Shown here: in pieces, positions 8,974-44,680 of the stretch
How the letters are laid out: each line of letters opens with the position of its first letter
Position numbering within the stretch: the stretch's first letter is position 1
NCBI GenBank assembly: GCA_949511925.1
Contig: CATEYX010000022.1
Coordinates: 1-51,197, forward strand
Reading direction: 5' to 3'
Source of the DNA: Cryomorphaceae bacterium
GTDB lineage: Bacteria > Bacteroidota > Bacteroidia > Flavobacteriales > BACL11
Length of the DNA stretch: 51,197 bases
Notes under the pieces: model-generated
Databases searched by the model: none
The model's input: the letters and a program-made list of their open reading frames with translations, nothing else
What the model was told of the DNA's origin: nothing
Made by a program: the position numbers and the translations under genes

Positions 8974-9701
8974 TTGCTCTCTTTAGAAAAGAAATAAGTG
9001 TCTTTTTTAGTACTCTAATTGGTTATCTAATTATTGGTATTTTTCAATTGATAAATAGCATTTTATTATGGTCGGATTTTAGCGATATGAATATTCTTAG
9101 CTACGGCTATGCTGACATGGATATTTTTTTCACTTCCGCTCCATTATTCTTTTTATTGTTTATCCCTGCTATAAGTATGCGCGTTTTTACTGAAGAATAC
9201 TCTTCAGGGACAATCGAAATTTTAATTACTAAATCAATTAACTCATTGCAAATTGTCATAGCTAAGTTTTTAGCTGTTTTTGTTTTGGTGATATTTGCCA
9301 TTCTCCCAACATTAATTTATGTAGCTAGTATTTACTATTTAGGAGAGAATATTGGCAACCTTGATCTAGCAGGTATTATGGGTTCGTATTTAGGATTAAT
9401 CTTTTTATGTGCACTCTTTTCTGCTATCAGTATCTATGCCTCATCTCTAGCAAGTAATCAGATTATTTCCTTTGCATTTGCTATTTTACTGTGCACTTTA
9501 TTTTATTTTGGGTTTGATGTATTAAGTGAACTTTCATTTTTTCAAAATTTCGATTTGTTTATTCAGCAATTAGGAATTTCTTTCCATTATGAAATGATGA
9601 GTAAAGGTCTAGTTAAACTCTCGGATATTATCTATTTTGTATCAGTTACTACTTTATTTATTAAGCTTACTGAACTTGTTATTACTGAAAGGAAAGCATA
9701 A
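8970..9701 (+). CDS. gldF: Gliding-motility ABC transporter permease GldF
   Basis: 243 aa ABC-2-type permease with about 6 helices. The N-terminus MIALFRKEISVFFSTLIGYLII is typical of GldF, and gldG follows immediately. Confidence 0.75.
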   Translation: MIALFRKEISVFFSTLIGYLIIGIFQLINSILLWSDFSDMNILSYGYADMDIFFTSAPLFFLLFIPAISMRVFTEEYSSGTIEILITKSINSLQIVIAKFLAVFVLVIFAILPTLIYVASIYYLGENIGNLDLAGIMGSYLGLIFLCALFSAISIYASSLASNQIISFAFAILLCTLFYFGFDVLSELSFFQNFDLFIQQLGISFHYEMMSKGLVKLSDIIYFVSVTTLFIKLTELVITERKA

Positions 9702-11428
9702 TGAAGTCTAATAAATCCATATCAACTGTTTTACTTATTGTACTCGTATTATTTATCAATATACTCAGTAGCTTTATTAATTGGAATATTGATTTGACAG
9801 CTGATAAAAAATATTCATTTGCTAAGGAATCAATTGCGATAATAAATAGTTTAGAGGATAAGTTATTTGTTAAAGTATATCTGAAAGGTGATTTCCCTGC
9901 AGAATTTAAAAAATTACAAAAATCAATTGAAGATTTGCTTAAACGATTTAAAGCAATAGCGAATAGTAATATTGATTTTGAGTTTATTGACCCTAATAAT
10001 GTTGCAAATGAAAACGAAAAGTTAGCTTTATTTAAACAGTTGGTAAAGATGAAGCTATCCCCTACTGATTTAGAAATTAAAAAAGATGGAAAACAAGTAA
10101 ATCAGATTATTTTTCCTGGAGCAATTGTTTATTATAAAGATAAACAAACGGCTGTCAATTTTTTAAAGCAGACACCGGGAGAATCGCCAGGAAGTAATAT
10201 CAATACTTCCATTGAAGCACTTGAATATGAATTTGTATCAGCTATTGAGCATTTAACCAAAAAAAGGTTAACAAAAATTGCTTTTCTAGAAGGAAATGGA
10301 GAGTTAAACGAGCAACAGGTTTATGATATTACAGAATCAGTTCTTGATGATAATTTTAATCTTTCCTATTACTATAAAGTTGACCGATTTAACATTAAGG
10401 AATTTGCAGTTGATAGTACTACTATGCTTGCTGATTTAGCAAGGCAATCAGCCCTTTTAAATACCTACAAAGCTATTATAATTGCTAAACCAACTATTAC
10501 TTTCAATAACTTAGACAAACTCCTTATTGATCAGTATATTATGCAGGGTGGTAAAGTGCTATGGTTGGTTGATGGAGTTAAAGCAAGTATGGATAGTTTA
10601 CAGAATAAATCAGGAACTTTTATTGCAACTAAAAATGTTCTAAATATTGATGATCAATTATTGAAATATGGAGTGAGAATTAATTCAAATTTAATACAAG
10701 ATCTGCGTTCTACTAAAATTCCTATTATAACAGGATATAGCAATAATATACCGCAACAATCTTATTTTAGTTGGCCCTATTCTGCTTTGTTAGTTTCGGA
10801 TAGTAAGCATGCTGTTTCAAGAGGTTTGGATGGGATAAAGTGTGAGTTTGTCAGTTCAATAGATACATTTAAAAATAATATTCAAAAAACTATTCTTTTG
10901 CATAGCTCGAAGGAAAGCAGATTGAATCCTGCCCCAAGTAAAATTAGTCTAGGAATTTTGGAAAATCCTCCAACTCCCAATAGTTATAATAAGAAGTTTT
11001 TACCAATAGCTATCTTACTTGAAGGAGAATTTGAATCCGTATTCAAGGATAAATTAGTTCAGAAAAATCAACAGATACAATTTATTAAAAAAAGTGTAAA
11101 CACTAAAATGATTGTTATAAGTGATGGAGATATTATTGCTAATGATTTAAGTAATTCTGGAGGTGTTTATCCTCTTGGTTATGACAAAAATATAAAATTC
11201 ACTTATCCAGGAAATAAACATTTTCTAATTAATGCCGTGCAGTACCTTTGTGGTGATAATGGTTTGTCACATTTGAAAGTAAAGGAGCATAATTTAAGAA
11301 TGTTAGATAAGAAAAAGGTTCAGGAAAATAGATTTATCATTCAGCTAATAAATATAGCTTTTCCAATATTATTATTATTATTATTTGCCTTGTTTTTTGT
11401 AAGGTATAAAAAAAGAAAATATGTCTAA
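9701..11428 (+). CDS. gldG: Gliding-motility ABC transporter auxiliary protein GldG
   Basis: 575 aa with N- and C-terminal TM anchors and a large periplasmic region. 1-nt overlap with gldF (TAATG). Confidence 0.75.
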   Translation: MKSNKSISTVLLIVLVLFINILSSFINWNIDLTADKKYSFAKESIAIINSLEDKLFVKVYLKGDFPAEFKKLQKSIEDLLKRFKAIANSNIDFEFIDPNNVANENEKLALFKQLVKMKLSPTDLEIKKDGKQVNQIIFPGAIVYYKDKQTAVNFLKQTPGESPGSNINTSIEALEYEFVSAIEHLTKKRLTKIAFLEGNGELNEQQVYDITESVLDDNFNLSYYYKVDRFNIKEFAVDSTTMLADLARQSALLNTYKAIIIAKPTITFNNLDKLLIDQYIMQGGKVLWLVDGVKASMDSLQNKSGTFIATKNVLNIDDQLLKYGVRINSNLIQDLRSTKIPIITGYSNNIPQQSYFSWPYSALLVSDSKHAVSRGLDGIKCEFVSSIDTFKNNIQKTILLHSSKESRLNPAPSKISLGILENPPTPNSYNKKFLPIAILLEGEFESVFKDKLVQKNQQIQFIKKSVNTKMIVISDGDIIANDLSNSGGVYPLGYDKNIKFTYPGNKHFLINAVQYLCGDNGLSHLKVKEHNLRMLDKKKVQENRFIIQLINIAFPILLLLLFALFFVRYKKRKYV

Positions 11429-12377
11429 AAAACAATTGTTTTATATTGCTCTTATTATACTAATGGCAGCTTTTCTTTGGTTTTTATCTGCTGATAAAAA
11501 ATCAAGTCTTAGTGTTGAGAATAACTTTTCAATAAGCGACACAGCATCAGTAAGTAAAATATTTATTGCTGACAGAAATGGCACGACTATTACCTTAAAT
11601 AGAAATGAAAAAGAATGGGTAATCAACAATAAATATGGAGTTAGAAAAGATGCAATTAACACTATCCTGACTACTATCAATCAAATTAGAATTCAAAGAC
11701 CGGTATCGATAAATGCTTTTGATAATGTGATTAAGAATTTAGCAACAAGAGGAGTGAAAATTGAAATTTATACTAACCAAGAAACTCCTAATAAAACATA
11801 TACTATTGGAAACTCAACCGCTAATTATTTAGGAACTTATATGTTTCTTGCTGGCAGTGAAACTCCTTATGTTATTCATATTCCATCTTTTAATGGCTTT
11901 CTTTCTCCTAGATACGGAATTAAAGTAGATAAAATAAATGAAAAAGATTGGCGAACAACTAATATATTTAGCCTAAAAGCTGAAAAAATTTCAAAAGTTA
12001 TAGTGAATCATATTCAAGACCCTAAAAAATCTTTTACCTTAACTACTGCCTCAATGATTTTGCTTAATTATTTAGGTAATGAAGCTAGCTTTAATCAAGA
12101 AAATGCTTTGCAATTCTTGAATGCTTTTCAACTGTTAAATTGTGAAAGCTATAAGGATGATAAAGAGAAAATAGAATTTGCTACTCCCATTCATGAGTTA
12201 ATTCTAAATACTGATACTTTAAGAACTTATGCTATTGGTAATGGTAAGTTGATAAAAGACAAGAAAGATAACTTTACAGTTAAACGAATGTATGCTACAT
12301 TGAATAATGGAGAGCTTATGATTATACAGGATTATGTTTTCAACAAAGTGTTAATTACTATTGATCAATTACAGTGA
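11421..12377 (+). CDS. DUF4340-like protein (N-terminal TM anchor), commonly downstream of gldG
   Basis: 318 aa with TM anchor LFYIALIILMAAFLWFL. 8-nt overlap with gldG. Family assignment is from memory of the gldFG context. Confidence 0.55.
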   Translation: MSKKQLFYIALIILMAAFLWFLSADKKSSLSVENNFSISDTASVSKIFIADRNGTTITLNRNEKEWVINNKYGVRKDAINTILTTINQIRIQRPVSINAFDNVIKNLATRGVKIEIYTNQETPNKTYTIGNSTANYLGTYMFLAGSETPYVIHIPSFNGFLSPRYGIKVDKINEKDWRTTNIFSLKAEKISKVIVNHIQDPKKSFTLTTASMILLNYLGNEASFNQENALQFLNAFQLLNCESYKDDKEKIEFATPIHELILNTDTLRTYAIGNGKLIKDKKDNFTVKRMYATLNNGELMIIQDYVFNKVLITIDQLQ

Positions 12378-19801: not shown

Positions 19802-21922
19802 TTACTCAATAACTATTTTCTTCTCAACAGAACCATCATCATAAATATAAAATAAAGTGTTTTTATTAATTATTGATTTTGAATTCACTTCTCTTCCTAA
19901 TAAATCAGTAGTTCTTAAAAGAGTTCGCTCAGTTAAATTAGGATTTGAAAACCGAATAATACCAGGTTGTGTCCAAAAAATAATTGGCGACCAAGTTGCT
20001 GAACGATAAGCACCACCACTTGAAGAACACCAAGTACGAGCTTGAGCTCTATAGCTTGCTCCTGGTATTAAACCATTCTTATTTTTGGTTAATATAGGGT
20101 AAGTTATTCCAAAACCACCCACATTGAACCAAGTACTTCCTACAACATCAATTCTAGTTTTAATACGCACAAAGCTAAAAACTGAAGAAGTATCCCAAGT
20201 AAAAGTTGCTTTTGTATTAGTTGGTGTACTTACTTGTAAGTTATTAATATTTGTACACTCTCCTAAAGTTGTAAAGTTTTGTATTGAAGACCATTCACTA
20301 ATATCCCCATCACAAAACCAAACTTTCATTTGATATTCATAATTAGTAGAAGGTATTAAGTTTAGCAATAATTTATTTGTTTTGTTAGTAGCTGTATTAC
20401 ACGTACCTAATGGTGCTCCCATATTTTTCTGGCTCCAAGAGCTTGTTCCAGTTATCTTATACTTAATTCTATATTGATCAACTGAACAACTAATTGTACT
20501 CAAATCATCCCAATTAATAGTTGCTCTATCATGTATTACATTACTACTATAAAGGCCAGTTATTCCAATTCCCAAGCAAGTTGGATGTAAGTATGCGTCT
20601 TGCACATGCATTTGTCCATTACTAAGCAATGCTGTAATTGTATCAGAATTGAATCCTAATGCAGAAAAAACTAATTGATAAGTCCCGGAATTTACGATTG
20701 CCGATTGATAATGACCTAATAAGTTAGCTGTTTCAGTAGTCAGTGTTGTTAGTATTTCCATATTAGCATTTGGTATAGCTAAACCAGTAATACTATTAAT
20801 AATATTTCCTTTTAAATAACAAGCTTGCTGAAAATTACGACCATAAATTAATAGCCTTCCTTTTCCACTACTACTATTAATGTCAGATGAAATTATATTA
20901 CCTGAAGGTAAATAAGGATAAGTACCCCAACATCCGTCAAAACCATTTCCACTACCAAAATAAGAATCATAATTCCCAACTTCTATCATATAATTAGGAT
21001 GAGTAATATCATGCACTACCGTTCCATCACGATAATAAGAAGTAATCAAAAAATTACCATCTACAAAAGTATTATGCGGGATACTATTACTTCCTGGGTT
21101 AGATTGTATTCTATCTACTTCCTGTATATTATTTAGATCTGAAATATCATAAACAGTCAAATAAGCATCTGACTGCTCGTCAGTGGTAAATACAAAATCT
21201 CCATCATCAGAAACCCAAGAATTATGAGTAAATGTATTGGGAGTTGATTTAGAACCTAGAACAGTAGGATTAGCTTTATTACTAACATCAACAATATACA
21301 CCTTACCTGCATAGATACATCCAGCATACATAGTATCACCTCTAACCATAGCATCATGAATGTATTGTTCATTCCATTGGCCTAAGTGAGTAGGATTTGT
21401 TGGGTTAGTTGCTACATCTAAAAATATAGCTCCATTTGCAGGGGCAGGAATTCCTGCAGGATTAGACGCGCCAAAAATATAAGCTATTCCATTCTCATCG
21501 ATAAACAAATCATGAGCAGCCTCCCAATGTAATGTACTTCCTGTTGTAGGGTTGATAAAATCAGTAACATGCCAAAAGGTAGCTCCTGTCATGTCGGTCA
21601 AATCAATAATTAGAAGTCCTGCATCTGATTCGGTAGTTACGTATGCATAGTTACCATAAGTTTTAATATCTCTCCAAACTGAATAGATATCGGCTATAAA
21701 AAACTCTTCAAAAGGAGTTGAAGGGTTTGTAACATTTACACAAGAAACTCCATTTCTAAGTCCTACAAGAGCAAACTCATTACCAATACTATCAGCCCAT
21801 CCCCAAATATCATTTCCTTTTGTTGTTGGATAGTCGTAAGTTCCTAATAAATTCATATTCAAACTACTTTGTGCTGAAGATAGCATAGGCAGTAATAGTA
21901 AAATAAAATATAATTTTTTCAT
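19802..21922 (-). CDS. T9SS-secreted choice-of-anchor-B/LVIVD beta-propeller protein with CarboxypepD_reg-like and twin FN3-like domains
   Basis: 706 aa. Signal peptide MKKLYFILLLLPMLSSAQS. Propeller-type N-terminus (NDIWGWADSIGNEFALVGL, WRDIKTYGNYAYVTTE, GLLIIDLTD). FN3-like pair at aa ~449-653 and a short tail LFYIYDDGSVEKKIVIE. Confidence 0.65.
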   Translation of the reverse strand: MKKLYFILLLLPMLSSAQSSLNMNLLGTYDYPTTKGNDIWGWADSIGNEFALVGLRNGVSCVNVTNPSTPFEEFFIADIYSVWRDIKTYGNYAYVTTESDAGLLIIDLTDMTGATFWHVTDFINPTTGSTLHWEAAHDLFIDENGIAYIFGASNPAGIPAPANGAIFLDVATNPTNPTHLGQWNEQYIHDAMVRGDTMYAGCIYAGKVYIVDVSNKANPTVLGSKSTPNTFTHNSWVSDDGDFVFTTDEQSDAYLTVYDISDLNNIQEVDRIQSNPGSNSIPHNTFVDGNFLITSYYRDGTVVHDITHPNYMIEVGNYDSYFGSGNGFDGCWGTYPYLPSGNIISSDINSSSGKGRLLIYGRNFQQACYLKGNIINSITGLAIPNANMEILTTLTTETANLLGHYQSAIVNSGTYQLVFSALGFNSDTITALLSNGQMHVQDAYLHPTCLGIGITGLYSSNVIHDRATINWDDLSTISCSVDQYRIKYKITGTSSWSQKNMGAPLGTCNTATNKTNKLLLNLIPSTNYEYQMKVWFCDGDISEWSSIQNFTTLGECTNINNLQVSTPTNTKATFTWDTSSVFSFVRIKTRIDVVGSTWFNVGGFGITYPILTKNKNGLIPGASYRAQARTWCSSSGGAYRSATWSPIIFWTQPGIIRFSNPNLTERTLLRTTDLLGREVNSKSIINKNTLFYIYDDGSVEKKIVIE

Positions 21923-22597
21923 TTAAATATGTTTTGGTGAAAGTTTATAAATTACTACAATATGAATTAATCCGATTAATTGTACAAATAAAATATAAAA
22001 TGGCCAATCCCCTGTTATTAACGGGTTATTTACTGATGGCTTAGATAATAAAAACATATAATTTGTGTCAAGTGTTAAATTAATCGAAAAAACTATTACA
22101 AATACAATTTGTGCTCTTAAAAAAGTTTTCCACCAACTTAATGCTCTTAGTTTATAATTCATAACAAACATTAAATACAAAGGAACTAGTATCAAACTAC
22201 CATGCATAAAATAATATTCAAATATATGCCACTTACTCGAACCCCAAATTAACTCAGGAGTTAGTAGAGCATTTAAAGCTGAAGGCAGAGCTAAGAGTAA
22301 AGCCCATTCGTACATCCATTTTTTTTTATTAAGTAAAACTAATATGCAAATAAAATAAGAAATATTGCACAAATGGAGTGGGAGAAAATCTTGAACTGTC
22401 CAATCACCAATAATTATGGTATATATATTAGTAGTCACATAAACTAGTATGGCAAAATAGGCAAAATACTTATTTGTTTTTTCTTTAAATTCAATTGATT
22501 TATTTTTCAATAAAAGAATTATTAAACTGACTATAGCTAAACAACTTACTATCCCTTTCCACCATAGTGGAGAAAAAGGATCAATTATTTCGTGCAT
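21923..22597 (-). CDS. Integral membrane protein (TIGR02206/YwaF-like, from memory)
   Basis: 224 aa with about 7 TM helices and the motif LPLHLCNISYFICILVLL. It abuts the downstream gene with no spacer. Confidence 0.5.
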   Translation of the reverse strand: MHEIIDPFSPLWWKGIVSCLAIVSLIILLLKNKSIEFKEKTNKYFAYFAILVYVTTNIYTIIIGDWTVQDFLPLHLCNISYFICILVLLNKKKWMYEWALLLALPSALNALLTPELIWGSSKWHIFEYYFMHGSLILVPLYLMFVMNYKLRALSWWKTFLRAQIVFVIVFSINLTLDTNYMFLLSKPSVNNPLITGDWPFYILFVQLIGLIHIVVIYKLSPKHI

Positions 22598-22746: not shown

Positions 22747-25700
22747 TTATTGCAAAATTAATTTTTTATTAATGATTCCGTCATTAGTTGTGATTTCAAA
22801 GAAATAGACACCCTTTGCATTATCATTTAGGTTTATCTTCTTAGTATACTCCCCAATAAACTGTTCTAAGTTTTCATTTAACAGCTCCTCTCCTATTACA
22901 TTCATTATTTTTACTCTTAAGTTTTGTTTAGTATCTAATGTAAAACTCACATTAAAAATATCTCTTGAAGGATTAGGATAAATAAATAAATTATTGATTG
23001 CACTACCTCCTTCAATTCTAATAGCATTTGGTTGCGCCCAGAAGATTGGAGATGTCCAACCTGAAGAACGGTAAGCTCCACCTGAAGGATCACACCATGT
23101 TCTTGCAGAAGCACGGTAAGTTTGTCCTGGATTTAATCCATTCTTATCCTTAGTAACTAATGGATAGAACACTCCAAATCCACCGGCAGTTGTCCAAACA
23201 GCATTAGTAGTGTCTGGCCTTAACTTAATACGTGCAAAACTATAAGCAGCTGTAGTATCCCAAGTAAATGTAGCTTTTGTAGTCGTTGGTGAAGTAACTG
23301 CAAAGTTAATTACACCTTGACACTCATCAGCTGTAGCAAAGTTTTGGATAGCAGACCATCCTGAAACGCCACCACCACAATACCAAGCTTTCATATAGTA
23401 CTCATACGTAGTTGAAGGAGTTAATCCTAAAATCTTCTTACTCGTAGTATTCAAGCCAAACACACATAAACCAGAACCTGACATTGTCTTAGAAGACCAT
23501 GTAGATACTCCTGTTTCTCTGTATCTAATACGATATTGAATAACCATACAATTAGCATCATTCATATTATCCCAATTTACTCTTGCTCTATCATGAATTA
23601 ATTCAGAAATATAAGCATTCGTAGGTGAAGGGTTAGTACATGTTGAAGTATACACACAAGAACTATCATCAATATTAGCAAGCGGGATATAGTTTAAGGC
23701 TAAAGAATCTGTACAGCCAAAAATAGAATTACAATTAGCACTAAAGCTAGCCCAATTATCAATATTTGTCCAGTTGGAAGTTGACCAAGATGGATTATCT
23801 ACATCTACACAATATAGGTTCGCGTTGTAGGTGATGTCAAAATAAATTAAAGCAGTATTATTTCCATTTCTTACATCAAGGCTGGTAAGTTGATTATTAT
23901 AACAACTTAATTCAGTTAAAGCAGTATTTTGACTTAAATCAAGGCTTGAAATCTGATTACCTTGGCAATACAAATAATATAACAACGTATTATTGGTTAA
24001 ATCAAGACTTGTGAGTTGATTAAAATCACAAAACAACCAAGTTAAATCAGTATTAGCACTTACATCAAGGCTTGAGATTTGATTAAACTCACAGCTCAAT
24101 TGAAATAAGTCAGTATTCTGACTTACATCAAGGCTGGTAAGTTGATTATTATAACAACTTAATTCAGTTAAATCAGTATTAGCACTTACATCAAGGCTTG
24201 TGATTTGATTAAACTCACAGCTCAATTGAATTAAGTCAGTATTCTGACTTACATCAAGGCTTGTTAGTTGATTATTATAACAATCTAATTCAATTAAATT
24301 AGTATTTAAACTCAAATCAAGGCTTGTAATTTGATTACCTACACAATACAGGTAATTTAAAGCAGTAAAATCTTCTATTCCTGTTAGATTATGAATATTG
24401 AGACTATTAACATTCAAATTTGTCACCGTATTAACATTTGCAGTAAGTACAGAATCATCTAAAATATTATCGTAGCCTAAATTAATAAGAGCCTGTTCAA
24501 AATTATCATCAGGCACATAAGTTTGTTGTTGATTATAAATACAACTTCCATCATCAACTGTTGCGGTAGAATCATAGTTAGCAACATTTACATCCATACA
24601 ACCAAATACTGGACATGAAGCTGAACCAACCGCAAACATAGTGGGCTGATGCATCATTTGCCAAGCAGCACTATTTACAGAAACAATAGGAATATAACCA
24701 TATACAGTGTAATCAATATTTGTTCCCCATGAATAGTTAATTTCATAACAACCATCAGGCAAACAAACTTGTAATGAATCAGTACCATCATCAGAAGCCA
24801 CAATAATTGAGTCACCATATTCATTGATGTCCCAATATCCACCATTATCTACTAGATAATAAAGTGATACAAAAGATGAAGTAGTCATTCCTGTTTTTAT
24901 TTCAATAAAATTATCAAAACAACATGAACCATCATCTATCGTAGCACTTGAATCATAGTTTAAAGATGTTGTATCTGTACACCCAAAAACTGGAGGGTGA
25001 TGAGCAATTATTACTCCTTTCATATCAGAAGATGCATGAGGCTGACATACATAATAAAACGTATGAGAATCATCTGGGATAAACATTCCTGTTGCTCCAA
25101 ACCCAAAACTAAAACCCCCATTTGAAGTATTTCCATTTACCAGCCAAACGCTATCGCTTACCTCTACAGCATTATGAGACCCTCCTAAAATAAAATTAAT
25201 TGTATCTCCCACATCACAAATAATGGTATCTGGCGAGAAACTCATTCCTAATGTTGTTATTGTATAAGAAGTGTAATCACAGCTATCATTTGTAATATTT
25301 GCTAATGGATTATAATTAATTGCTAAGGAATCTGTACATCCATATACTTGAGGAACCCATGCCGCTATAGCCGTATTCAATAAACCTTCAATAGTTGAGT
25401 AATTTTGAGCTGTTACACAGTACAAAGCACAAATAGTTGTATATGATCTATCAGGATAAATTACATAATATCCTGGGGTGTAATATAATTGATAATTTAT
25501 AGCAGTAGGTGATACATTGTTTGCTATAGAAAATGTAATTCCGTAAGTACTTGCAAAGTTAGCTACTGCAGCACTATCAGTTGCAGCATTAACTTCTAAA
25601 GCTAAGAATCTAGCAACATCTGTTCCGATTGGCCCATTTGTTAAATAAGAGTTTTCAGTTCCTGCTGCATGAGACTGACAGTGTCCACAAGTTGTACTCA

Positions 25701-25875
25701 ATAGTTCTAATACCATTACATAACCACTATCAAGATAATCGTATATAGTATGTGAATTCCCGTTTATATCAGTTACTGTAAAATTAGGAGCATATCCAGT
25801 TCCATTTAATAAACCAGATTGTGCATTTGCAAAAAGTGTTATGCAAATTAGTAGAAATGTTAGTATTTTTTTCAT
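22747..25875 (-). CDS. Large T9SS cargo: thioredoxin-like (CGHC) + cupredoxin (type-1 Cu) + unknown domain + LRR array + twin FN3-like + type-A CTD
   Basis: Start moved to MKKILTFLLICITLFANAQ (ATG 25873-25875), because the tracked ORF's first 18 aa have no signal peptide. TCGHCQ lies at 25678-25689. SHNAVEV and CQPHASSDM lie at 25021-25047. There are about nine 21-aa LRRs. The CTD reads IYPNPSRDIFNVSF...GVYFFEITTNDGIINKKLILQ. Confidence 0.85.
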   Translation of the reverse strand: MKKILTFLLICITLFANAQSGLLNGTGYAPNFTVTDINGNSHTIYDYLDSGYVMVLELLSTTCGHCQSHAAGTENSYLTNGPIGTDVARFLALEVNAATDSAAVANFASTYGITFSIANNVSPTAINYQLYYTPGYYVIYPDRSYTTICALYCVTAQNYSTIEGLLNTAIAAWVPQVYGCTDSLAINYNPLANITNDSCDYTSYTITTLGMSFSPDTIICDVGDTINFILGGSHNAVEVSDSVWLVNGNTSNGGFSFGFGATGMFIPDDSHTFYYVCQPHASSDMKGVIIAHHPPVFGCTDTTSLNYDSSATIDDGSCCFDNFIEIKTGMTTSSFVSLYYLVDNGGYWDINEYGDSIIVASDDGTDSLQVCLPDGCYEINYSWGTNIDYTVYGYIPIVSVNSAAWQMMHQPTMFAVGSASCPVFGCMDVNVANYDSTATVDDGSCIYNQQQTYVPDDNFEQALINLGYDNILDDSVLTANVNTVTNLNVNSLNIHNLTGIEDFTALNYLYCVGNQITSLDLSLNTNLIELDCYNNQLTSLDVSQNTDLIQLSCEFNQITSLDVSANTDLTELSCYNNQLTSLDVSQNTDLFQLSCEFNQISSLDVSANTDLTWLFCDFNQLTSLDLTNNTLLYYLYCQGNQISSLDLSQNTALTELSCYNNQLTSLDVRNGNNTALIYFDITYNANLYCVDVDNPSWSTSNWTNIDNWASFSANCNSIFGCTDSLALNYIPLANIDDSSCVYTSTCTNPSPTNAYISELIHDRARVNWDNMNDANCMVIQYRIRYRETGVSTWSSKTMSGSGLCVFGLNTTSKKILGLTPSTTYEYYMKAWYCGGGVSGWSAIQNFATADECQGVINFAVTSPTTTKATFTWDTTAAYSFARIKLRPDTTNAVWTTAGGFGVFYPLVTKDKNGLNPGQTYRASARTWCDPSGGAYRSSGWTSPIFWAQPNAIRIEGGSAINNLFIYPNPSRDIFNVSFTLDTKQNLRVKIMNVIGEELLNENLEQFIGEYTKKINLNDNAKGVYFFEITTNDGIINKKLILQ
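23800..24435 (-). repeat. Coding tandem array of 63-bp (21-aa) leucine-rich repeats
   Basis: Repeated LTSLDVSQNTDLxxLSCxxNQ units. Two adjacent 126-bp blocks (24042-24167 and 24168-24293) differ at only about 7 positions by eye. Confidence 0.9.
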
Positions 25876-25902
25876 GTCTGATAAGTTATAATTAGAAGGC
25901 TT

Positions 25903-25910
25903 CAAATGTA
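25903..25910 (-). promoter_or_regulatory. -7 promoter box TACATTTG (minus strand) for the large T9SS cargo gene
   Basis: The plus strand reads caaatgta. It lies 27 nt upstream of the ATG at 25873-25875. Confidence 0.35.
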
Positions 25911-25978
25911 GTGAAAATAGAATAAACATTAAGGTAAAAAAATCTATAAGCAGTCTAATAAAATAAATAATTTTCGGT

Positions 25979-26002: not shown

Positions 26003-28351
26003 ATGAAAAATACAATCTCAACAATCTTCTTTTTATTATTTACAATAATTAGTGTTGCACAAGATAAGTATACAATTAGCGGTTACGTACAGGATGAATC
26101 CTCAGGAGAAAACTTAATTGGTGTTTCTATTTATGATAAAGAAACTTTTAAAGGAACAGCTAGCAATCAATATGGATTTTACTCATTAACCATTGAGGAA
26201 GGAGATTATGCAATCATTTTTTCATTTATAGGATTTAAATCTACAACAAAAAATATAACATTAAATAAAGATATTAGATTAAATATCTCTTTAGACAGTG
26301 ATGCTGTAATAACAGAAGAAGTAATTGTAACCGGTGAAAGATTGGATAAAAATGTGAGTAGTTCTAATATGAGTCAAGCAAAAATAGAGGTTAATAATAT
26401 TAAACAGTTACCCGCGATACTAGGAGAAATTGATATTATGAAAGCAGCACAACTTTTACCGGGGATTCAATCAGGAGGAGAAGGAAATTCAGGTCTTTAT
26501 GTAAGAGGAGGTGGTCCTGATCAGAACTTAATATTATTGGATGAAGCAGTAGTGTATAATGCCGCTCATCTTTTTGGTTTTTTCTCAGTATTTAATGCTG
26601 ATGCTATAAAAGATATAAATATAATTAAAGGGGGTATGCCTGCGGAATATGGCGGTAGACTATCTTCTGTTCTGGATATTACCATGAAGGATGGTAACAA
26701 TAAAAAATATGAGGCGGCTGGAGGAATTGGCCTGTTATCCTCAAGATTAACAATTGAAGGTCCGGTTCAAAAGAACAAAAGTTCATTTATTGTTTCTGGT
26801 AGAAGAACTTATATTGATGTTCTATCAAAACCATTTTTAAACAGTGACAATGCTTTTAGTGGATCAGGTTATTATTTTTATGATTTAACCACCAAAGTAA
26901 ATTACAAAATATCAGACAACGACCGATTATATTTAAGTGGTTATTTTGGACGAGATGTTTTCAGCTTTAATAATACAGATAATGGCATTGGAATAGAAAT
27001 TCCTTGGGGTAACGCAACTAGTTCATTAAGGTGGAATCACTTATTTAATGATAAATTATTCATGAACACATCTCTTATTTTTTCAGATTACAGATTTGAA
27101 TTTAATATAGCCCAACAAGAATTTGAATTAAAGATATTCTCGGGAATTAATGATTGGAATACTAAGGTTGATCTTCTTTATCAGCCAAATCAAAGACACA
27201 CAATAAAATTTGGAGCAAATTACACTTATCATGAATTTACACCAGGAAATGCTTCTGGCAAAGCAGGAGAAGTAGTTTTTGAATCTGATGAGATATTTAA
27301 ACAATACTCTAATGAAGGAGCTTTATATGTATCTGATGATTTTGAAGTTACTGATGCTTTTAAAATACATGCTGGTCTGCGCTATTCATCATTTCAACAT
27401 AGCGGCTATATAAGCTTCCGTGATTACATTAAAAATGACTTTCAATCGAATGATGATAATTATAGACATATTGAGCCAAGGCTTTCATTTAGATACAGAT
27501 TATCTACTTCAAGCTCTATAAAAGGTGCCTATACTCAAAACTATCAATATGTTCATTTAGCTTCAACATCAAGCGTAAGTTTACCTACCGATCTTTGGGT
27601 ACCAAGTTCTTCAGAAATTAAGCCAAAATTTGCAGATCAATATGCTATAGGTTATTTCAAAAACCTAAATGATAATATGTATGAAACTTCTATTGAAGCT
27701 TATTACAAAGAAATGACAAATTTAATTGAATATAAAGAAGGAGTTTTACCTGAGGATAATACTAATTCTAGTAGTGATGGTTCTTTTGCATTTGGTGATG
27801 GTGATTCATATGGAATAGAAGTACTAATAAAAAAGAATAAAGGAAAAACAACAGGGTGGATTGGATACACACTATCAAAAACAACTAAATACTTTGATGA
27901 AGTAAATGCTGGAATTTCATTTCCAGCTAAATACGATAGAAGACATGACTTGTCTATTACAGCTACTCACAGATTATCAAAAAAATGGACACTAAGCAGT
28001 GTTTTTGTTTATGCTACAGGAAATGCTATAACACTACCAAGCGAAATTTATACTATAGGCGGAAAACCCTATACTGAGTTTACATCTAGAAATGGTTTTA
28101 GAATGGACCCATATCATAGGCTTGATATAGGAGCTACATACAATCCTAAGAAAAAGAAGAAATTTCAATCTTCATGGAATTTTTCAATATACAATGTCTA
28201 TAGCAGAAAGAACCCTTATTTTATTTATCTTGCCTTAGAAGCATCTGATGGACAAGAAGGAAGTTTTGAAGATGGCAGTGTAACACCTAAAGCCTATCAA
28301 GTATCAATATTCCCAATCTTACCTTCTGTTACTTGGAATTTTAATTTTTAA
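26003..28351 (+). CDS. TonB-dependent outer-membrane receptor with N-terminal CarboxypepD_reg-like domain
   Basis: 782 aa with a signal peptide. CarbopepD_reg domain (YTISGYVQDESSGENLIGVSIY). Plug domain (LLPGIQSGGEGNSGLYVRGGGPDQNLILLDEAVVYN). Beta-barrel ending WNFNF. Confidence 0.85.
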   Translation: MKNTISTIFFLLFTIISVAQDKYTISGYVQDESSGENLIGVSIYDKETFKGTASNQYGFYSLTIEEGDYAIIFSFIGFKSTTKNITLNKDIRLNISLDSDAVITEEVIVTGERLDKNVSSSNMSQAKIEVNNIKQLPAILGEIDIMKAAQLLPGIQSGGEGNSGLYVRGGGPDQNLILLDEAVVYNAAHLFGFFSVFNADAIKDINIIKGGMPAEYGGRLSSVLDITMKDGNNKKYEAAGGIGLLSSRLTIEGPVQKNKSSFIVSGRRTYIDVLSKPFLNSDNAFSGSGYYFYDLTTKVNYKISDNDRLYLSGYFGRDVFSFNNTDNGIGIEIPWGNATSSLRWNHLFNDKLFMNTSLIFSDYRFEFNIAQQEFELKIFSGINDWNTKVDLLYQPNQRHTIKFGANYTYHEFTPGNASGKAGEVVFESDEIFKQYSNEGALYVSDDFEVTDAFKIHAGLRYSSFQHSGYISFRDYIKNDFQSNDDNYRHIEPRLSFRYRLSTSSSIKGAYTQNYQYVHLASTSSVSLPTDLWVPSSSEIKPKFADQYAIGYFKNLNDNMYETSIEAYYKEMTNLIEYKEGVLPEDNTNSSSDGSFAFGDGDSYGIEVLIKKNKGKTTGWIGYTLSKTTKYFDEVNAGISFPAKYDRRHDLSITATHRLSKKWTLSSVFVYATGNAITLPSEIYTIGGKPYTEFTSRNGFRMDPYHRLDIGATYNPKKKKKFQSSWNFSIYNVYSRKNPYFIYLALEASDGQEGSFEDGSVTPKAYQVSIFPILPSVTWNFNF

Positions 28352-28353
28352 TT

Positions 28354-29358
28354 ATGAAAAAATATATTTATATTATAAGTCTTTTATTAATTTCTTGCCA
28401 AGAAGAAATAACACTTGATTTACCACAAATACAAGACAAAATTGTTGTAGAAGGTTCAATAGAAAACGGATTTCCTCCTTATGTTATTTTAACTAAGAAT
28501 CAAGGTTATTTTGATGAAATTGACAGCAATACTTACAATAATTTATTTATAACTGATGTAGATTCCGTAAAAATTTGGTATTATAATGAAGGAGAGAAAG
28601 TATCGAAAACACTTGAGCAAATTGTCGGGTTAGATTCACTACCTCCCATTTATACTGATTTGGATTACTTTAATAATACTGACAACTATGAATTTAGTAA
28701 AGAAGGAAGAACCTATTTTTTAGAAATAAATTGGAATAATCAAATTATTTCAAGTTCTACAACAATTCCTAAAGCTACTCCATTGGATTGTTTATGGGTT
28801 GAAAAAAGTGAGAATGAAGAAGAGGAATTCAAGTTTGATATAAGAGCTTTATATTCAGATCCAGCAGATCAAAATAATTACATCTTAGTTAAATCTAAAA
28901 GAATTCAGCATTATGAAAAAATAGATAGCATAGGCTGTCAAGTTAAAAATAACCCCGATTTTTCACTAAAAATTATAGATGCTGGAGCAGATGTTTTAAT
29001 TAATGGACAAACATTTGAGACCTATTTTCCTAGACCAAGAGATAATGGTTTTCCAACAGGTAAATATAATGGATATCATAAAGAAGAATGTCAAGGTGAT
29101 TCTATAGAGTTCTTAAAGGATGTAGTGTTAATTAAATATTGTCAAATTGATGAAGCATCATTAAAATTTTGGAGAGGACTAATAAGACAAGTTGGAACAA
29201 ATGGCAATCCATTTGCAGAGCCATTGAATCTTGTTAGCAATATAACTAATGGCCTTGGAATATTTTCCGGATACGGATCTGCATATTATATGGTACCAAT
29301 AGTAGAAGATACAGTAATTTTTGAACAACATACACCAGAAATAATAGATGTATTTTAA
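28354..29358 (+). CDS. DUF4249-family lipoprotein (usual partner of this TonB-receptor class)
   Basis: 334 aa. Lipoprotein signal MKKYIYIISLLLISC. The N-terminus LDLPQIQDKIVVEGSIENGFPPYVILTKN is typical of DUF4249. It starts 2 nt after the receptor stop codon. Confidence 0.65.
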   Translation: MKKYIYIISLLLISCQEEITLDLPQIQDKIVVEGSIENGFPPYVILTKNQGYFDEIDSNTYNNLFITDVDSVKIWYYNEGEKVSKTLEQIVGLDSLPPIYTDLDYFNNTDNYEFSKEGRTYFLEINWNNQIISSSTTIPKATPLDCLWVEKSENEEEEFKFDIRALYSDPADQNNYILVKSKRIQHYEKIDSIGCQVKNNPDFSLKIIDAGADVLINGQTFETYFPRPRDNGFPTGKYNGYHKEECQGDSIEFLKDVVLIKYCQIDEASLKFWRGLIRQVGTNGNPFAEPLNLVSNITNGLGIFSGYGSAYYMVPIVEDTVIFEQHTPEIIDVF

Positions 29359-34117: not shown

Positions 34118-35572
34118 CTAACTACGAAAATCAAAATAAATATGTTTTATTTCTTTAAAAAAGATTAAAGCATAAAAGCAATATAATAATATCGGGAATA
34201 GAAAGTAGTGAAACATTTTAAAATCTAATTCATGAGTCATTCCTAAATACAAAAATGGTGCACTAACTAAAACAAGCAAGTAAAGAGGCATACTAAAAGG
34301 ATGTATATTCAGCTTAATATTTATTATTATGATTCTATAGATTTCAGTAAGTAAACTAAAAATAACAAATAACAATACAACAGCTAATAATTTATACTCT
34401 GTTATAAATAGAATTGCTAATACATTAATAAAGAGAACCTTAAAGAATTGTAGTTTTAGTTCGTATTTCTCTAAATTTGCCATTGTTAAAATATTTCCAG
34501 CCCCACCAACTAATAACCTAAATATCCTTCCAAACATAATAATATATAAATAAGGAGCATATTTAACTAAACCACCAGTATCATCATATAAGTAGAGTAT
34601 ATCTTTAGAAAAAATTATAATACTAATAATAAAAGGTGCGGCTAGTAAATTTATAATAAATGTAGTCTTTTTAAATAGAATCTCCAATTCACTAATCCTA
34701 TTCTCACTAAATAACTTGCTTATTGCAGGAGCAAATATTGTATTTAAATTATTTATTAAAAATAAGGTTACTCCAGATATCGATAATAATATACTATATA
34801 CACCAATATAAATCGTAGGTAACATAAAACTAAGTATTAAAGATAATGATTGCCCAGCAAAAAAAGTAACTAATGAAATTGTATACATTTTCTTTGCATA
34901 GCTTGTTATCTCAGAATCTATCTTAAAATCTATATCCTTCTCTACAAAAACAATTGAAAATACATTCTTATTAAAGAAATAAAACAATAATGATAATGAA
35001 ACAAATGATGTAAACATTTCAATACCAATAAAATACAGAACATTATCAGTGTATATGAAAATAAAATAGGTGAGCACTGCTCGTAAGGGAACAATAATAA
35101 AAGTACCATACAACATTATTTCTTTAATCTTAAACGCAGATCGATATAAAGAAATAATAATTCCCATCAAAATTGAGATAGGAACGTTAATTGATGTTAC
35201 TAATAAAAATAAAGAGAAGTTATTAATTTCTTTATATAAATAAACATCTAATACTGGAGCTAAAAAATAGATGATTACAAGAAACACAAAAGATATTACC
35301 AAAGAGTAATTAATAATCTTTCTTATAAGTTGTTTTGCAGACTTAAGATCAGCATCAATATACTGTGGAATATACTTGACAATAACCCATGGGATACCAA
35401 AAGAGATAATAGTACTCATAGCACCAGAGAATGTGAGAGCAGAAACATATTTTCCCCATTGTTCAATTCCAATAATATCAATAAGATATATCTTAATAAA
35501 AAAGCCTATAACAAAACCAAAAATAGAGCCTGCAATCCCCCAATTTGCTTGTTTAATTATTAAATTTATCAT
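34118..35572 (-). CDS. wzx: Wzx-type oligosaccharide flippase (MOP superfamily)
   Basis: 484 aa with about 12-14 TM helices. It is the last gene of the polysaccharide operon. Confidence 0.7.
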   Translation of the reverse strand: MINLIIKQANWGIAGSIFGFVIGFFIKIYLIDIIGIEQWGKYVSALTFSGAMSTIISFGIPWVIVKYIPQYIDADLKSAKQLIRKIINYSLVISFVFLVIIYFLAPVLDVYLYKEINNFSLFLLVTSINVPISILMGIIISLYRSAFKIKEIMLYGTFIIVPLRAVLTYFIFIYTDNVLYFIGIEMFTSFVSLSLLFYFFNKNVFSIVFVEKDIDFKIDSEITSYAKKMYTISLVTFFAGQSLSLILSFMLPTIYIGVYSILLSISGVTLFLINNLNTIFAPAISKLFSENRISELEILFKKTTFIINLLAAPFIISIIIFSKDILYLYDDTGGLVKYAPYLYIIMFGRIFRLLVGGAGNILTMANLEKYELKLQFFKVLFINVLAILFITEYKLLAVVLLFVIFSLLTEIYRIIIINIKLNIHPFSMPLYLLVLVSAPFLYLGMTHELDFKMFHYFLFPILLYCFYALIFFKEIKHIYFDFRS

Positions 35573-35599
35573 ATATGACTATTTATTATATTGGATGAA

Positions 35600-36742
35600 T
35601 CAGTTAATATCAGTAAAAAACGAATAATTCATAAATTCTTTAATTGTATTCTTAATATCATACTTCTCATCAAAAGGAAAGCTTCTTTTCTTCTTATATT
35701 CACCAAGTATTTTCTCTTTTAATGAACTTGGTGACTTTTCATCAGCTAACAAATTATTAATTTCATAATCAGGAATAAGTTCTGATATTCCTTGACATTT
35801 AATTGCAATAAAGGGAGTATTGGTAGACCAGGACTCTAAGTAAACGCAACCTAAAGCTTCATAATAAGAAGGCAATACAAATAAATCAATCTCATTATAA
35901 AAGCTATTAATCAAATTATGTGCTCTCTCTTTTTCAAAAATTACGAATTCTGATAAATTATGATCTTTCACAAATTTCTTACACAAGTCTAATTTTTTTC
36001 CTGTACCAATCAATTTTAGCTGAATATCATTTATCCCATCTAAAATTAATAATTCAATTGCTTTTATTAGAGTTATTTGATCTTTTATTTCCCAAAAGTT
36101 TGCAACACTTCCAATAGTAAAAGATCTATTTACATCACCTTTAATAGGATAAAATTTTGATGTATCCACTCCATTATACAAAACAAGTTCATCTTTTGGA
36201 GAATAAGATGGGTATTCTCTCAGTTGACTTAAAACTAGTTCTGACACTCCAATATTCAAATCTGAATGATTTAGTTGTCTGATTGTATTTCTAATTAAAT
36301 AATTCTTTTGTAATTTCATAATAAAATTACTCCTTCCATTTAATAATTGAAGTACATCAAGTCCATGATGTTGCACTATTTTTTTACAATCTAAAATATT
36401 TTGCAAGTATGATGCCGGATAAGAAACATGTGCATGAGAAATTATAATATCATTTATCTTTTTATTTTTTAAGAAGGATTTAAACCTATTTGTATTTAAT
36501 TCGTTAAAAATTCCTGGAGAAATAAACCACGGTAAATCCATTACTCTAAATATCATAATTTCAAAACCTTCAAATTTATAATCCTTTTCAACTGAAAAAG
36601 CAGAAACTAATTTAATGACTTTAATATTGAAATCACTTTGATTTCTAATTTCATTTATTTGATCAAAAATATAACTACCAACAAAAGAATTTTTAGAAGG
36701 AAAAAATGGAGTAATTACTAAGTATGTTTTTTTATTGTCCAT
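35600..36742 (-). CDS. Family 4 (GT-B) glycosyltransferase
   Basis: 380 aa. E-x7-E region LPSYYEALGCVYLESWS. Confidence 0.75.
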   Translation of the reverse strand: MDNKKTYLVITPFFPSKNSFVGSYIFDQINEIRNQSDFNIKVIKLVSAFSVEKDYKFEGFEIMIFRVMDLPWFISPGIFNELNTNRFKSFLKNKKINDIIISHAHVSYPASYLQNILDCKKIVQHHGLDVLQLLNGRSNFIMKLQKNYLIRNTIRQLNHSDLNIGVSELVLSQLREYPSYSPKDELVLYNGVDTSKFYPIKGDVNRSFTIGSVANFWEIKDQITLIKAIELLILDGINDIQLKLIGTGKKLDLCKKFVKDHNLSEFVIFEKERAHNLINSFYNEIDLFVLPSYYEALGCVYLESWSTNTPFIAIKCQGISELIPDYEINNLLADEKSPSSLKEKILGEYKKKRSFPFDEKYDIKNTIKEFMNYSFFTDIN

Positions 36743-37769
36743 TATGCAAATTTACAATTACTTTTTCCCAATCAATAATAATATTTTTCCAGTCAAATCT
36801 TTTAGCTAATTTAACAGCATTTTCAGATGACTTCTGAAGAGATACTGAATCATTAAGTAGCTCATTAATAATACTCTTCACCTCATTAAAATCATTTGCA
36901 ATAAAGCCATTAATTCTATGCTTCATCCATTTAGAAGCACCATAAGAATTATAAACTACTGAAGGAATTCCAGCTGAAGCAGCTTCCAAAATTACCTTAG
37001 GAAATCCCTCAGATTTTGAAGGAAGAAACATTATATCTGATTGCTGGAATATTGCATCTATTTTATCCTGTGATAACTCTCCATGAAAAACTACATTAGA
37101 ACTAGCATTTTTTTCTAAATTATCTCTCTCAGGACCATTACCAATTATATTAAAATTAATTTGAGGATAAAATTTAGCTAATAGTAAAAATTCATCTATC
37201 CTTTTCCTTTTTATTAATCCTCCTACAAAAACAATTGATCTTAAATTTTGAGCAATTTTTGAGTTAAATTGATGAACATTCACACCTAACAATAAAGGAA
37301 TATTATTGATGGATATTACTGATTGAGTTTCTTGGATTAGAAATCTAGTAATACCAAAAACTTGCTTAAAATAACTAAAATGATTTTTCATGTTATTTTC
37401 TGACCCAAATAAAGCAATTAGATTAGGTTTACTTAAATCAGTTACATTTCCTTCAATAGTAGTAAAAACTGGCTTTTTGAGTAGTTTTGCTAACTTTAAC
37501 ACCCAAAGTGGAGTATCAACATGTTTAGGAAAATACGCTACATCACTATTGAGCATTCCCCATAAAAAGCCTAAATGCTTTGAAAAACTAAAAGGCTTTA
37601 AGCATTTGAAGGTATTTGCCTCAAAACTCTCACTTCTGCCAAAATGTGTAGTTAAGGCTAATACTTCAAATTTATCTTTATCCAAATACTCTGCAACTGC
37701 TCTACAATTTAAATTCTGAGCATTGGTATAATTAATATATCCACCAAGAAATACTTTTATTTTACTCAT
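36732..37769 (-). CDS. Family 4 (GT-B) glycosyltransferase
   Basis: 345 aa. E-x7-E region LPSKSEGFPKVILEAASAGIP. It overlaps both neighbouring genes. Confidence 0.75.
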   Translation of the reverse strand: MSKIKVFLGGYINYTNAQNLNCRAVAEYLDKDKFEVLALTTHFGRSESFEANTFKCLKPFSFSKHLGFLWGMLNSDVAYFPKHVDTPLWVLKLAKLLKKPVFTTIEGNVTDLSKPNLIALFGSENNMKNHFSYFKQVFGITRFLIQETQSVISINNIPLLLGVNVHQFNSKIAQNLRSIVFVGGLIKRKRIDEFLLLAKFYPQINFNIIGNGPERDNLEKNASSNVVFHGELSQDKIDAIFQQSDIMFLPSKSEGFPKVILEAASAGIPSVVYNSYGASKWMKHRINGFIANDFNEVKSIINELLNDSVSLQKSSENAVKLAKRFDWKNIIIDWEKVIVNLHNGQ

Positions 37770-44678: not shown

Positions 44679-44680
44679 AC

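Follow-up and report, generated by a model that had tools for sequence, protein, structure and literature searches.

A thioredoxin-fold domain fused to a predicted type-1 copper domain in putative surface proteins of marine Flavobacteriales

The elements considered in this study are known singly: thioredoxins of the TlpA/ResA class, type-1 copper domains of family PF00127, and thioredoxin-active type IX secretion system (T9SS) cargo, of which HBP35 is the example. A thioredoxin domain may also be secreted together with the means of its re-oxidation: QSOX, in which a CGHC thioredoxin domain is fused to a module that re-oxidises it, is secreted as a self-contained extracellular disulfide catalyst. 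HBP35 of Porphyromonas gingivalis requires two cysteines for the reduction of insulin (PMC2907840), and redox-active thioredoxin modules are therefore exported by the T9SS. TlpA is needed to keep the copper-ligand cysteines of the cupredoxin-fold protein CoxB reduced before metallation (PMC6669012; PMC7558416). I consider here a gene on the minus strand (22747..25875) of a 51,197-nt contig of a Cryomorphaceae bacterium, an uncultured marine member of the Flavobacteriales (CATEYX010000022.1, assembly GCA_949511925.1), the whole of which I will call the window. What is new in its predicted product is a conserved fusion of a CxxC thioredoxin fold with a type-1 copper domain on a predicted secreted surface chassis. 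Full-text literature searches found no paper describing such a fusion, and as far as the searched literature shows, it would be the first thioredoxin-fold CxxC to be fused directly to a type-1 copper site.

The listing of open reading frames (ORFs) gives a single long minus-strand frame, 22747..25929, and an exact-protein lookup of this 1060-aa version returned no record. Judged by its relatives, the correct start codon is that at 25875 (MKKILTF...), because all orthologues open with MKK(I/L)... and have signal peptides that close alike in ...NAQ; the product from this start is 1042 aa. Gln19, whose column is nearly invariant among the orthologues, is likely the first mature residue, and substrates of signal peptidase I in Bacteroidota are known for a "Q-rule". 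The signal peptide is followed by a thioredoxin-like domain (CGHC), a cupredoxin, a domain of ~105 aa, leucine-rich repeats (LRRs), two FN3-like modules and a type-A T9SS C-terminal domain (CTD). Each of these domains, as well as the two motif readings (CGHC; H, C-x2-H-x4-M), had been named in a first-pass annotation of the sequence, and profile scans, PDB alignments and structure prediction bear them out. The parts of the gene are as follows.

25822..25875, minus strand: Sec signal peptide, aa 1-18 (MKKILTFLLICITLFANA), read from the sequence, with MKK...NAQ shared by orthologues
25348..25812, minus strand: ResA/TlpA-type thioredoxin-fold domain, aa 22-176 (Pfam, NCBIfam, PDB sequence match, Foldseek)
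25279..25341, minus strand: Cys-linker mini-module 1, aa 179-199 (GCTDSLAINYNPLANITNDSC; motif match)
24997..25272, minus strand: predicted plastocyanin-type type-1 copper (cupredoxin) domain, aa 202-293 (Pfam Copper-bind, PDB alignment, AlphaFold2 [AF2], Foldseek)
24922..24984, minus strand: Cys-linker 2, aa 298-318 (regular-expression match)
24604..24921, minus strand: unassigned domain of ~105 aa, aa 319-424, which includes the motif CLPDGCY and belongs to a lineage-specific insert (no Pfam match)
24541..24603, minus strand: Cys-linker 3, aa 425-445 (regular-expression match)
23731..24540, minus strand: LRR solenoid, aa 446-715, part of the lineage-specific insert (Pfam LRR_4, Tandem Repeats Finder [TRF], repeat register)
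23656..23718, minus strand: Cys-linker 4, aa 720-740 (regular-expression match)
23026..23655, minus strand: twin FN3-like modules, aa 741-950 (Pfam fn3)
22750..22983, minus strand: type-A T9SS C-terminal sorting domain, aa 965-1042 (PF18962, TIGR04183)
22747-22749, minus strand: stop codon

The CGHC motif occupies aa 63-66 (nt 25678-25689) in the context STTCGHCQ. Around it the Pfam profile AhpC-TSA scores 20.1 bits in this copy (aa 29-142), below its gathering score of 26, and 31.6 and 28.9 bits, above that score, in two orthologues that are 81-88% identical; the match to the ResA subfamily of NCBIfam is weak (28.7 bits, E 1.1e-6, as compared to a cutoff of 170). A search of PDB sequences matches the domain to Bacillus ResA (E 1.9e-5), with CGHC placed on the CxxC of ResA and T133-P134 on its cis-Pro, and the two best matches are engineered ResA variants, CPHC and CEHC. 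Foldseek likewise puts ResA/TlpA/DsbE-type thioredoxins at the top of the PDB, with a template-modelling (TM) score of 0.80 to ResA (1su9), and the predicted structure, read with the alignment, has the cis-Pro loop of a thioredoxin fold and a CxxC placed just as in that fold, before helix 1. The CxxC pair is found in all 88 aligned thioredoxin domains of homologues, 66 of them with CGHC, and the cis-Pro in all 90 homologues with an aligned column (88 TP, one IP, one YP). Nearly invariant among the orthologues is E57, a buried acid six residues ahead of C63, which corresponds in position to the Asp26 that is buried in E. coli thioredoxin. A second cysteine pair, C149-x3-C153, lies past the last strand, away from the active site, and is conserved in every thioredoxin domain where it is aligned (90 of 92).

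Three other assignments of this domain were considered and set aside. Membership in the family of protein disulfide isomerase (PDI) is rejected, as only the CGHC tetrapeptide is held in common: there is a single thioredoxin domain in place of the a-b-b'-a' series of PDI, there is no WCGHCK, and the best matches are to ResA/TlpA. A Sco/SenC copper chaperone would have a distal Cu-binding His and CxxxC at the active site, where CxxC is found here, and the Sco-like structures 3me7 and 3me8 rank lower (TM ~0.55). The match to AhpC-TSA does not make the domain a peroxiredoxin, since it has a CxxC and lacks the Pro/Thr/Arg context of a peroxidatic cysteine, and since ResA/TlpA proteins are again what it matches best.

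The second domain matches Pfam Copper-bind (PF00127) over aa 207-290 with 25.0 bits, above the gathering score of 21.2. Its predicted copper ligands, H234, C277, H280 and M285, align with those of plastocyanin in PDB (E 5.6e-4) and have the spacing C-x2-H-x4-M. The NCBIfam matches to halocyanin and plastocyanin are weak, and plastocyanin proper can be rejected (17.2 bits to the TIGR02656 equivalog, whose cutoff is 87.85); the domain is plastocyanin-like in the geometry of its site only. For aa 21-297, AF2 with an input of 49 sequences gives a model whose mean predicted local distance difference test score (pLDDT) is 85.8 and whose predicted TM score (pTM) is 0.62. Within it the cupredoxin (pLDDT ~95) is predicted to be a beta-sandwich of the cupredoxin type with a His, Cys, His, Met ligand set, and Foldseek gives TM scores of 0.65-0.72 to plastocyanin and pseudoazurin. 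The 50 best-ranked Foldseek matches in PDB include no chain that spans both the thioredoxin and the cupredoxin domain.

The complete ligand set is seen in 100 of 106 homologous cupredoxin alignments (one has a substitution and five are short of a ligand column). Conservation of the motifs across homologues means that they are not there by chance. Both sites are evidently under purifying selection, and the pattern of conservation in the two of them argues against purely structural cysteines and against a copper-free sandwich. At the position of a further cysteine, C220, 61 of 65 fused cupredoxins have Cys and many unfused ones have I, V or L.

A search with the N-terminal 427 aa brought up 1199 homologues, and all those with names belong to metagenomes of marine Flavobacteriales or Bacteroidota. 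The head on its stalk of FN3x2 and CTD recurs in hundreds of proteins from metagenomes of marine Flavobacteriales. Several homologues bear the automatic annotation "plastocyanin" or "plastocyanin/thiol-disulfide isomerase/thioredoxin". Among the best 120 of the 1199, the commonest arrangement is thioredoxin, cupredoxin, FN3, FN3 and CTD (26 proteins, or 38 together with 12 that lack a recognisable CTD). The same 120 include thioredoxin-FN3x2-CTD (16), cupredoxin-FN3x2-CTD (6), forms with several cupredoxins, and a few proteins in which the thioredoxin-cupredoxin pair is followed by LRRs. In a scan of one genome per GTDB species, the full head of thioredoxin and cupredoxin occurs in ~25 species-level genomes, nearly all of them labelled as metagenome-assembled or single-amplified genomes of uncultured marine Flavobacteriales or Bacteroidota. 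I also searched a cluster library of 1.84 billion representatives at 50% identity, where 3261 proteins matched at E<=1e-3; both domains are matched in 7 of the best 150 cluster matches (3 over full length), and the remainder match the cupredoxin, the thioredoxin or the linker alone. The fusion is thus, so far as sequences tell, recurrent, stably inherited and confined to a narrow clade. The architecture, which the first-pass annotation did not recognise, is no singular case: CGHC thioredoxin, cupredoxin, FN3x2 and CTD make up the commonest form of the family. As to whether the domain order of the window protein itself recurs in other genomes, thioredoxin-cupredoxin-FN3x2-CTD does so, and thioredoxin-cupredoxin-LRR is seen in a few of the best 120 homologues.

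The two FN3-like modules (matched by Pfam fn3 as two stretches, E 1.2e-8) are a common stalk across the architectures of this cargo family and are present also in the neighbouring LVIVD protein (19802-21922). At the C-terminus, PF18962 (Por_Secre_tail) scores 49.6 bits against a cutoff of 27 and TIGR04183 scores 41.1 against a cutoff of 23. By sequence, the protein is T9SS cargo, because it has both a Sec signal peptide and a type-A CTD; the stalk and CTD would bring about its export and, by analogy with other type-A cargo, its attachment to the cell surface. The only T9SS-related genes within the window lie at 8970-12377 and encode an ABC-2 permease, a protein with ABC_transp_aux and DUF7088, and a DUF4340 protein; they look like an ABC module of the GldF/GldG type associated with gliding and the T9SS, consistent with a T9SS-bearing host. 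A different C-terminus is seen in the LVIVD protein, a beta-propeller protein (minus strand), and in orthologues of 579-580 aa (P0046, P0012, P0014 and L004), where a tail of ~50 aa (NPNLTERTLLRITDLLGREVN...TLFYIYDDGSVEKKIVIE) replaces the 75-aa type-A CTD and keeps its NPN, D..GR and terminal K-rich motifs, in the manner of a condensed CTD. This tail may be a minimal T9SS signal. In HBP35 the last 22 residues of the CTD suffice for secretion (PMC10202324, a review).

Between head and stalk, the members of the family differ. The positional orthologue in two syntenic loci (P0046, in L002 and L019) has 579 aa, is 66-71% identical domain by domain, and consists of thioredoxin, linker, cupredoxin, linker and FN3x2. 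It has neither the ~105-aa domain nor the LRRs, its cupredoxin running by way of the linker directly into the FN3 pair, and for this reason the two are regarded as an insert, ~420 aa long (aa 319-740) in the window protein, with copies of the Cys-linker at its edges. The same slot holds two lamin-tail domains (LTDs) in L004 and L009, LTD together with LRR in L009, a second cupredoxin in L017, L020 and L031, and other modules elsewhere. The conserved unit is, on this comparison of orthologues, the thioredoxin-cupredoxin head on its FN3x2-CTD stalk, and the middle is a variable slot, apparently one that serves binding modules. The earlier picture of the LRRs as the scaffold on which both redox centres are mounted does not hold, given an orthologue without LRRs and others that fill the slot differently. 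In one orthologue (L008, ~9000-9400) a second cupredoxin, azurin-like with C-x4-H-x4-M (YDCSVGSHAVNGM), is nested in the first FN3-like module; Pfam backs this layout of a domain within a domain, with Copper-bind matching two stretches.

The linker has the consensus GC[TM]DxxAxNYxxxAxxDDGSC, ~21 aa with two cysteines, and corresponds to no Pfam family. There are four copies in this protein, and the motif occurs 1-9 times in 99 of the 120 homologues; the large proteins P0123 and P0125 have up to ~24 matched stretches centred on it, and it is found also in P0114 and L009. It looks like a disulfide-stapled universal spacer between domains and is likely a recombination point for domain shuffling. 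The ~105-aa domain (aa 319-424) has no Pfam match at E<=10, a homology search with it came up empty, and its AF2 model, made from an alignment of 3 sequences, is unusable (pLDDT 33). Its only relatives are tandem copies, with Cys-linkers between them, in the metagenomic proteins P0114 and P0116; P0114 carries in addition repeated "YDSYGDGWNG" domains.

The LRR solenoid (Pfam LRR_4, E 8e-18) consists of an N-cap, 8 regular repeats of 21 aa, each with a conserved Cys that together form a Cys ladder, and 1-2 degenerate repeats. NCBIfam internalin_J matches locally, over aa 451-693, with 155.7 bits (E 1.7e-45; the cutoff is 1700). In the DNA, TRF finds a period of 63 nt (7.4 copies) and a super-period of 126 nt, equal to two repeats, at 23870-24339 (3.7 copies, 80% identity). 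The super-period suggests that a unit of two LRRs was amplified in tandem fairly recently. Contig joints in RNA runs (23725->24537) might be read as a variant with the LRRs deleted, a reading I reject because the sides of the joints are only 20-22 nt; I judge them to be tips in the assembly graph from paralogous linker DNA.

Synteny with the window is complete at two loci (L002 and L019), over the genes for RecQ, a TrxB-like protein, DUF4249, a TonB receptor, the gene itself, TMEM164, the LVIVD protein, a permease and GcvT. The nearest genes on the other strand, divergent from the gene, are these.

26003..29358, plus strand: TonB-dependent receptor (26003-28351) and DUF4249 protein (28354-29358) (Pfam)

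This pair adjoins the gene for the fusion in 11 of ~22 such loci with enough flanking sequence, and also a gene with the thioredoxin alone (L025); its conservation is limited to the neighbourhood of the receptor-linked group of orthologues. A comparison with PDB shows no sequence similarity between the receptor and the TonB-dependent copper transporters NosA and OprC, so that a copper receptor of that type next door is rejected for want of sequence support. Directly downstream, on the same strand, lies a gene for a membrane protein of the TMEM164 family (21923-22597, E 3e-41), which abuts the LVIVD gene; both are syntenic in L002, L003 and L019. I know of no bacterial member of the TMEM164 family that has been characterised.

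The exact DNA of the gene occurs in ~20 marine metagenome runs. Two marine metatranscriptomes contain contigs (889 and 893 nt) that agree without a difference with the region encoding the head, at a depth like that of neighbouring genes, which suggests that the gene is expressed in situ; RNA libraries may hold DNA carried over, and this counts against the suggestion. The part encoding the FN3 modules (~23174-23841) has a contig word depth of 460-2170 in these two metatranscriptomes, as compared to 5-15 elsewhere in the gene and its neighbours, and because of this excess it appears that another gene or strain with an FN3x2 module at least 95% identical is very highly represented in the RNA. A scan for sigma-70 promoters and terminators gave the same counts as in shuffled sequence, promoters of Bacteroidota being outside its coverage. 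What I take to be a TAnnTTTG-like element (TACATTTG), given low weight, stands ~26-33 nt upstream of the ATG at 25875.

Do the two centres of the head work together? The order of domains is always thioredoxin and then cupredoxin, the reverse having been seen in none. Of the fused proteins, 54 of 58 retain CGHC, as compared to 10 of 28 relatives without cupredoxin. In a neighbour-joining tree of the thioredoxin domains, lineages without cupredoxin are interspersed among the fused ones, and the His has been replaced ~5 times (CATC, CGNC, CGTC, CGSC, CGGC); the more distant outgroups have the classical CGPC. CxHC thus looks like a derived trait in this clade, one that is better maintained when the copper domain is present. 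Motifs of the CxHC class are of the oxidising type (CPHC in DsbA, CGHC in PDI), and type-1 copper has a potential several hundred mV above that of any dithiol/disulfide couple.

I propose that the head serves at the cell surface in thiol oxidation or disulfide exchange, with electrons passing from CGHC to Cu(II) and with variable binding modules directing it to its targets, an account that I prefer to its rivals but offer tentatively, as possible rather than probable. The redox head would be a thioredoxin fold of the ResA/TlpA type, its active site turned to CGHC, joined by a fixed linker of 21 residues and two Cys to a type-1 copper domain. Beyond the outer membrane there would presumably be no electron supply of the DsbD/CcdA type, and for this reason, together with the oxidising type of CxHC, the thioredoxin module would be expected to act in the direction of oxidation or exchange, its CGHC disulfide taking two electrons from substrate thiols. 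The neighbouring Cu(II) would re-oxidise the dithiol of CGHC, acting as a sink or relay for electrons; if the two centres communicate, flow would be from thiol to copper because of the higher potential of the latter. The copper site might then hand electrons on to O2 or another acceptor, while the inserts (LRR, LTD or others) would determine which ligands or surfaces the head is brought to. The earlier idea, of a protein for thiol or electron transfer outside the cell that is fitted with adhesive modules, is still plausible, gaining some support from the conservation of the sites and from the association of CGHC with cupredoxin; nothing in any of the results supports the "redox-sensing" part of that idea. 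A bolder form of the proposal would make of the protein a copper-dependent sulfhydryl oxidase or disulfide exchanger, or a thiol-driven cupric reductase: a new, self-contained extracellular catalyst displayed on the surface and re-targeted by the swapping of modules (LRR, lamin-tail, the ~105-aa domain). This form I consider unlikely. If it were true, the catalyst would tie the cell surface to the thiol and copper chemistry of organic matter in seawater.

Several observations weigh against electron transfer between the two centres. The distance from thioredoxin to cupredoxin is 23-24 aa in 59 of 62 proteins, a constancy that must be discounted as evidence of coupling, since the linker is a generic module of fixed length found between all domains. 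The association of CGHC with cupredoxin is confounded by phylogeny, and the neighbour-joining tree has no support values. The pTM of the head model (0.62) is no demonstration of a fixed interface, and its CGHC block is modelled as coil with a pLDDT of only 64. Paralogues with thioredoxin alone or cupredoxin alone on the same stalk indicate that each domain can work by itself. Type-1 copper, moreover, is a one-electron centre that reacts poorly with O2, and no terminal acceptor came to light.

The existence of those paralogues invites the view that the two domains are independent modules on the FN3x2-CTD chassis, each with its own substrates or partners, brought together by linker-favoured shuffling and exchanging no electrons. 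The modularity of the family is certainly high (thioredoxin-FN3x2-CTD, cupredoxin-FN3x2-CTD, three cupredoxins in a row, thioredoxin with two cupredoxins, and inserts of LTD or LRR all occur), one type of linker joins every pair of domains, up to ~24 times in other proteins, and single genomes carry several such cargo genes, sometimes adjacent (L009, L010, L011, L014). Shuffling of this sort does not readily account for the dominance of thioredoxin followed by cupredoxin, stably inherited over ~25 species, nor for the lack of any protein with the order reversed, nor for an active-site His that is better conserved where cupredoxin is present, and I regard independence of the modules as somewhat unlikely. 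It is also conceivable that the thioredoxin is a built-in maturation factor, a TlpA-like domain that, in the oxidising periplasm and prior to export by the T9SS, keeps the ligand C277 and the conserved C220 reduced for insertion of copper, leaving blue copper as the sole working centre outside. The fold and best matches are indeed of the TlpA/ResA/DsbE class, there is the precedent of TlpA acting on CoxB and ScoI, and the prevalence of Cys at position 220 in fused cupredoxins, as compared to the unfused, would be explained. Moreover, T9SS cargo folds in the periplasm, where reductant of the CcdA/DsbD type is at hand. However, paralogues with cupredoxin alone mature with no thioredoxin fused to them, those that carry only thioredoxin on this stalk contain no cupredoxin that it could serve, and C220, at a position otherwise hydrophobic, is probably buried. 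CGHC is, besides, more oxidising than the CxPC of TlpA and ResA, and with CGPC in outgroups that look ancestral, the change has been away from a reductase motif. To built-in maturation I would assign a rather low probability.

The divergent receptor suggests a third role, that of copper capture: the type-1 site, of high affinity, would pick up the metal at the cell surface, and the thiols of CGHC would reduce or mobilise it for delivery to the receptor-DUF4249 pair. The protein would then be a "cuprophore" that resembles HBP35 in its capture of haem. In favour of this are the head-to-head placement of the pair here and its presence at half of the informative fusion loci and at the thioredoxin-only locus, the union of a thioredoxin motif with haem capture on T9SS cargo in HBP35, and precedents for the separate steps: uptake of copper through TonB-dependent NosA/OprC and MbnT, and reduction of Cu(II) by cysteine in the cupredoxin-like CupA (PMC7558416). 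The syntenic genomes are close relatives, however (their TrxB proteins are 84-97% identical), and adjacency may be merely inherited; about half of the fusion loci with enough flank have no adjacent receptor, and the receptor here does not resemble NosA or OprC. Since type-1 sites are in addition suited to the transfer of electrons and not to the release of metal, copper capture strikes me as quite improbable. The possibility least in accord with the data is that there is no redox function at all, the protein being a plain LRR/FN3 surface adhesin with structural cysteines and a copper-free beta-sandwich as spacer. The many other paired cysteines, in linkers and LRR ladder, are compatible with it, as are the sub-threshold score of AhpC-TSA in this copy and the low confidence with which the region of CGHC is modelled. 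The conservation of four copper ligands and of the triad of CxxC, cis-Pro and buried acid over tens of diverged homologues makes such an adhesin very improbable, as does the retention of the redox head by most family members, which have no LRR.

Two further features of the window lie at a distance from the gene. A region of low GC content (25-30%) at 34118-45451, minus strand, is a polysaccharide locus, with a Wzx-like flippase, GT4 glycosyltransferases, a fusion of CMP-sugar cytidylyltransferase and HAD, a NeuB-type synthase of sialic or nonulosonic acid, a Wzc-like tyrosine kinase, a Wza-like exporter and two ORFs with no Pfam match. At 118-558 lies a GTG-start ORF of 146 aa, whose match to the Phage_integrase profile (172 positions) covers positions 43-170 only; the gene is probably longer and XerC/D-like, its start mis-called or cut off by the window edge.

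Marine Flavobacteriales are major consumers of organic matter from phytoplankton, and the T9SS cargo known from them consists for the most part of hydrolases and adhesins. A cargo family that is conserved, apparently transcribed and invariant in its pair of redox centres would point to redox chemistry at the surface as well, be it thiol oxidation, disulfide exchange or the handling of copper, and the fusion offers a compact system in which to study the coupling of two-electron to one-electron transfer. If the two domains are independent, what is left is a well-documented example of how domains are shuffled as modules in T9SS cargo.

The nearest relatives of the first domain, ResA, TlpA and CcmG (DsbE), have the same fold with its N-terminal hairpin and central insert, the same positions of CxxC and cis-Pro, and an extracytoplasmic location. 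They have CxPC, whereas here the motif is CGHC with no preceding Trp and there is an extra pair, C149-x3-C153; and they are anchored in the membrane, facing the periplasm, whereas here the domain is the N-terminus of a predicted T9SS cargo protein and is fused to a cupredoxin. Plastocyanin, pseudoazurin and halocyanin (PF00127) share with the second domain the cupredoxin fold and the H...C-x2-H-x4-M ligands in their spacing, but these are soluble shuttles of the periplasm or lumen, not a part of a predicted secreted protein of 1042 aa. The likeness to Listeria InlJ is confined to the type of repeat (21 residues, each with a conserved Cys); the proteins belong to different families, and there is no Gram-positive anchoring here. 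HBP35 is likewise type-A CTD cargo with an N-terminal thioredoxin motif, but it binds haem and, unlike the window protein, has no copper domain, FN3 stalk or LRR; no sequence relationship to it is detectable, and it is absent from the PDB sequence matches of the window protein. The TlpA-ScoI-CoxB maturation pathway also brings a thioredoxin of the TlpA class to the cysteines of a copper domain of cupredoxin fold (PMC6669012). There, however, the proteins are separate, TlpA is a reductase with the motif CVPC, and the centre is a binuclear CuA with Cys at two of its ligand positions, while here the domains are fused, CGHC is the motif, and the predicted site is of type 1 with a single Cys ligand. 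The resemblance to QSOX is one of analogy only, in the logic of a CGHC thioredoxin joined to an oxidase, with no homology beyond the thioredoxin fold: the oxidase of QSOX is an Erv/ALR FAD domain that reduces O2, and its counterpart here would be a one-electron type-1 copper site.

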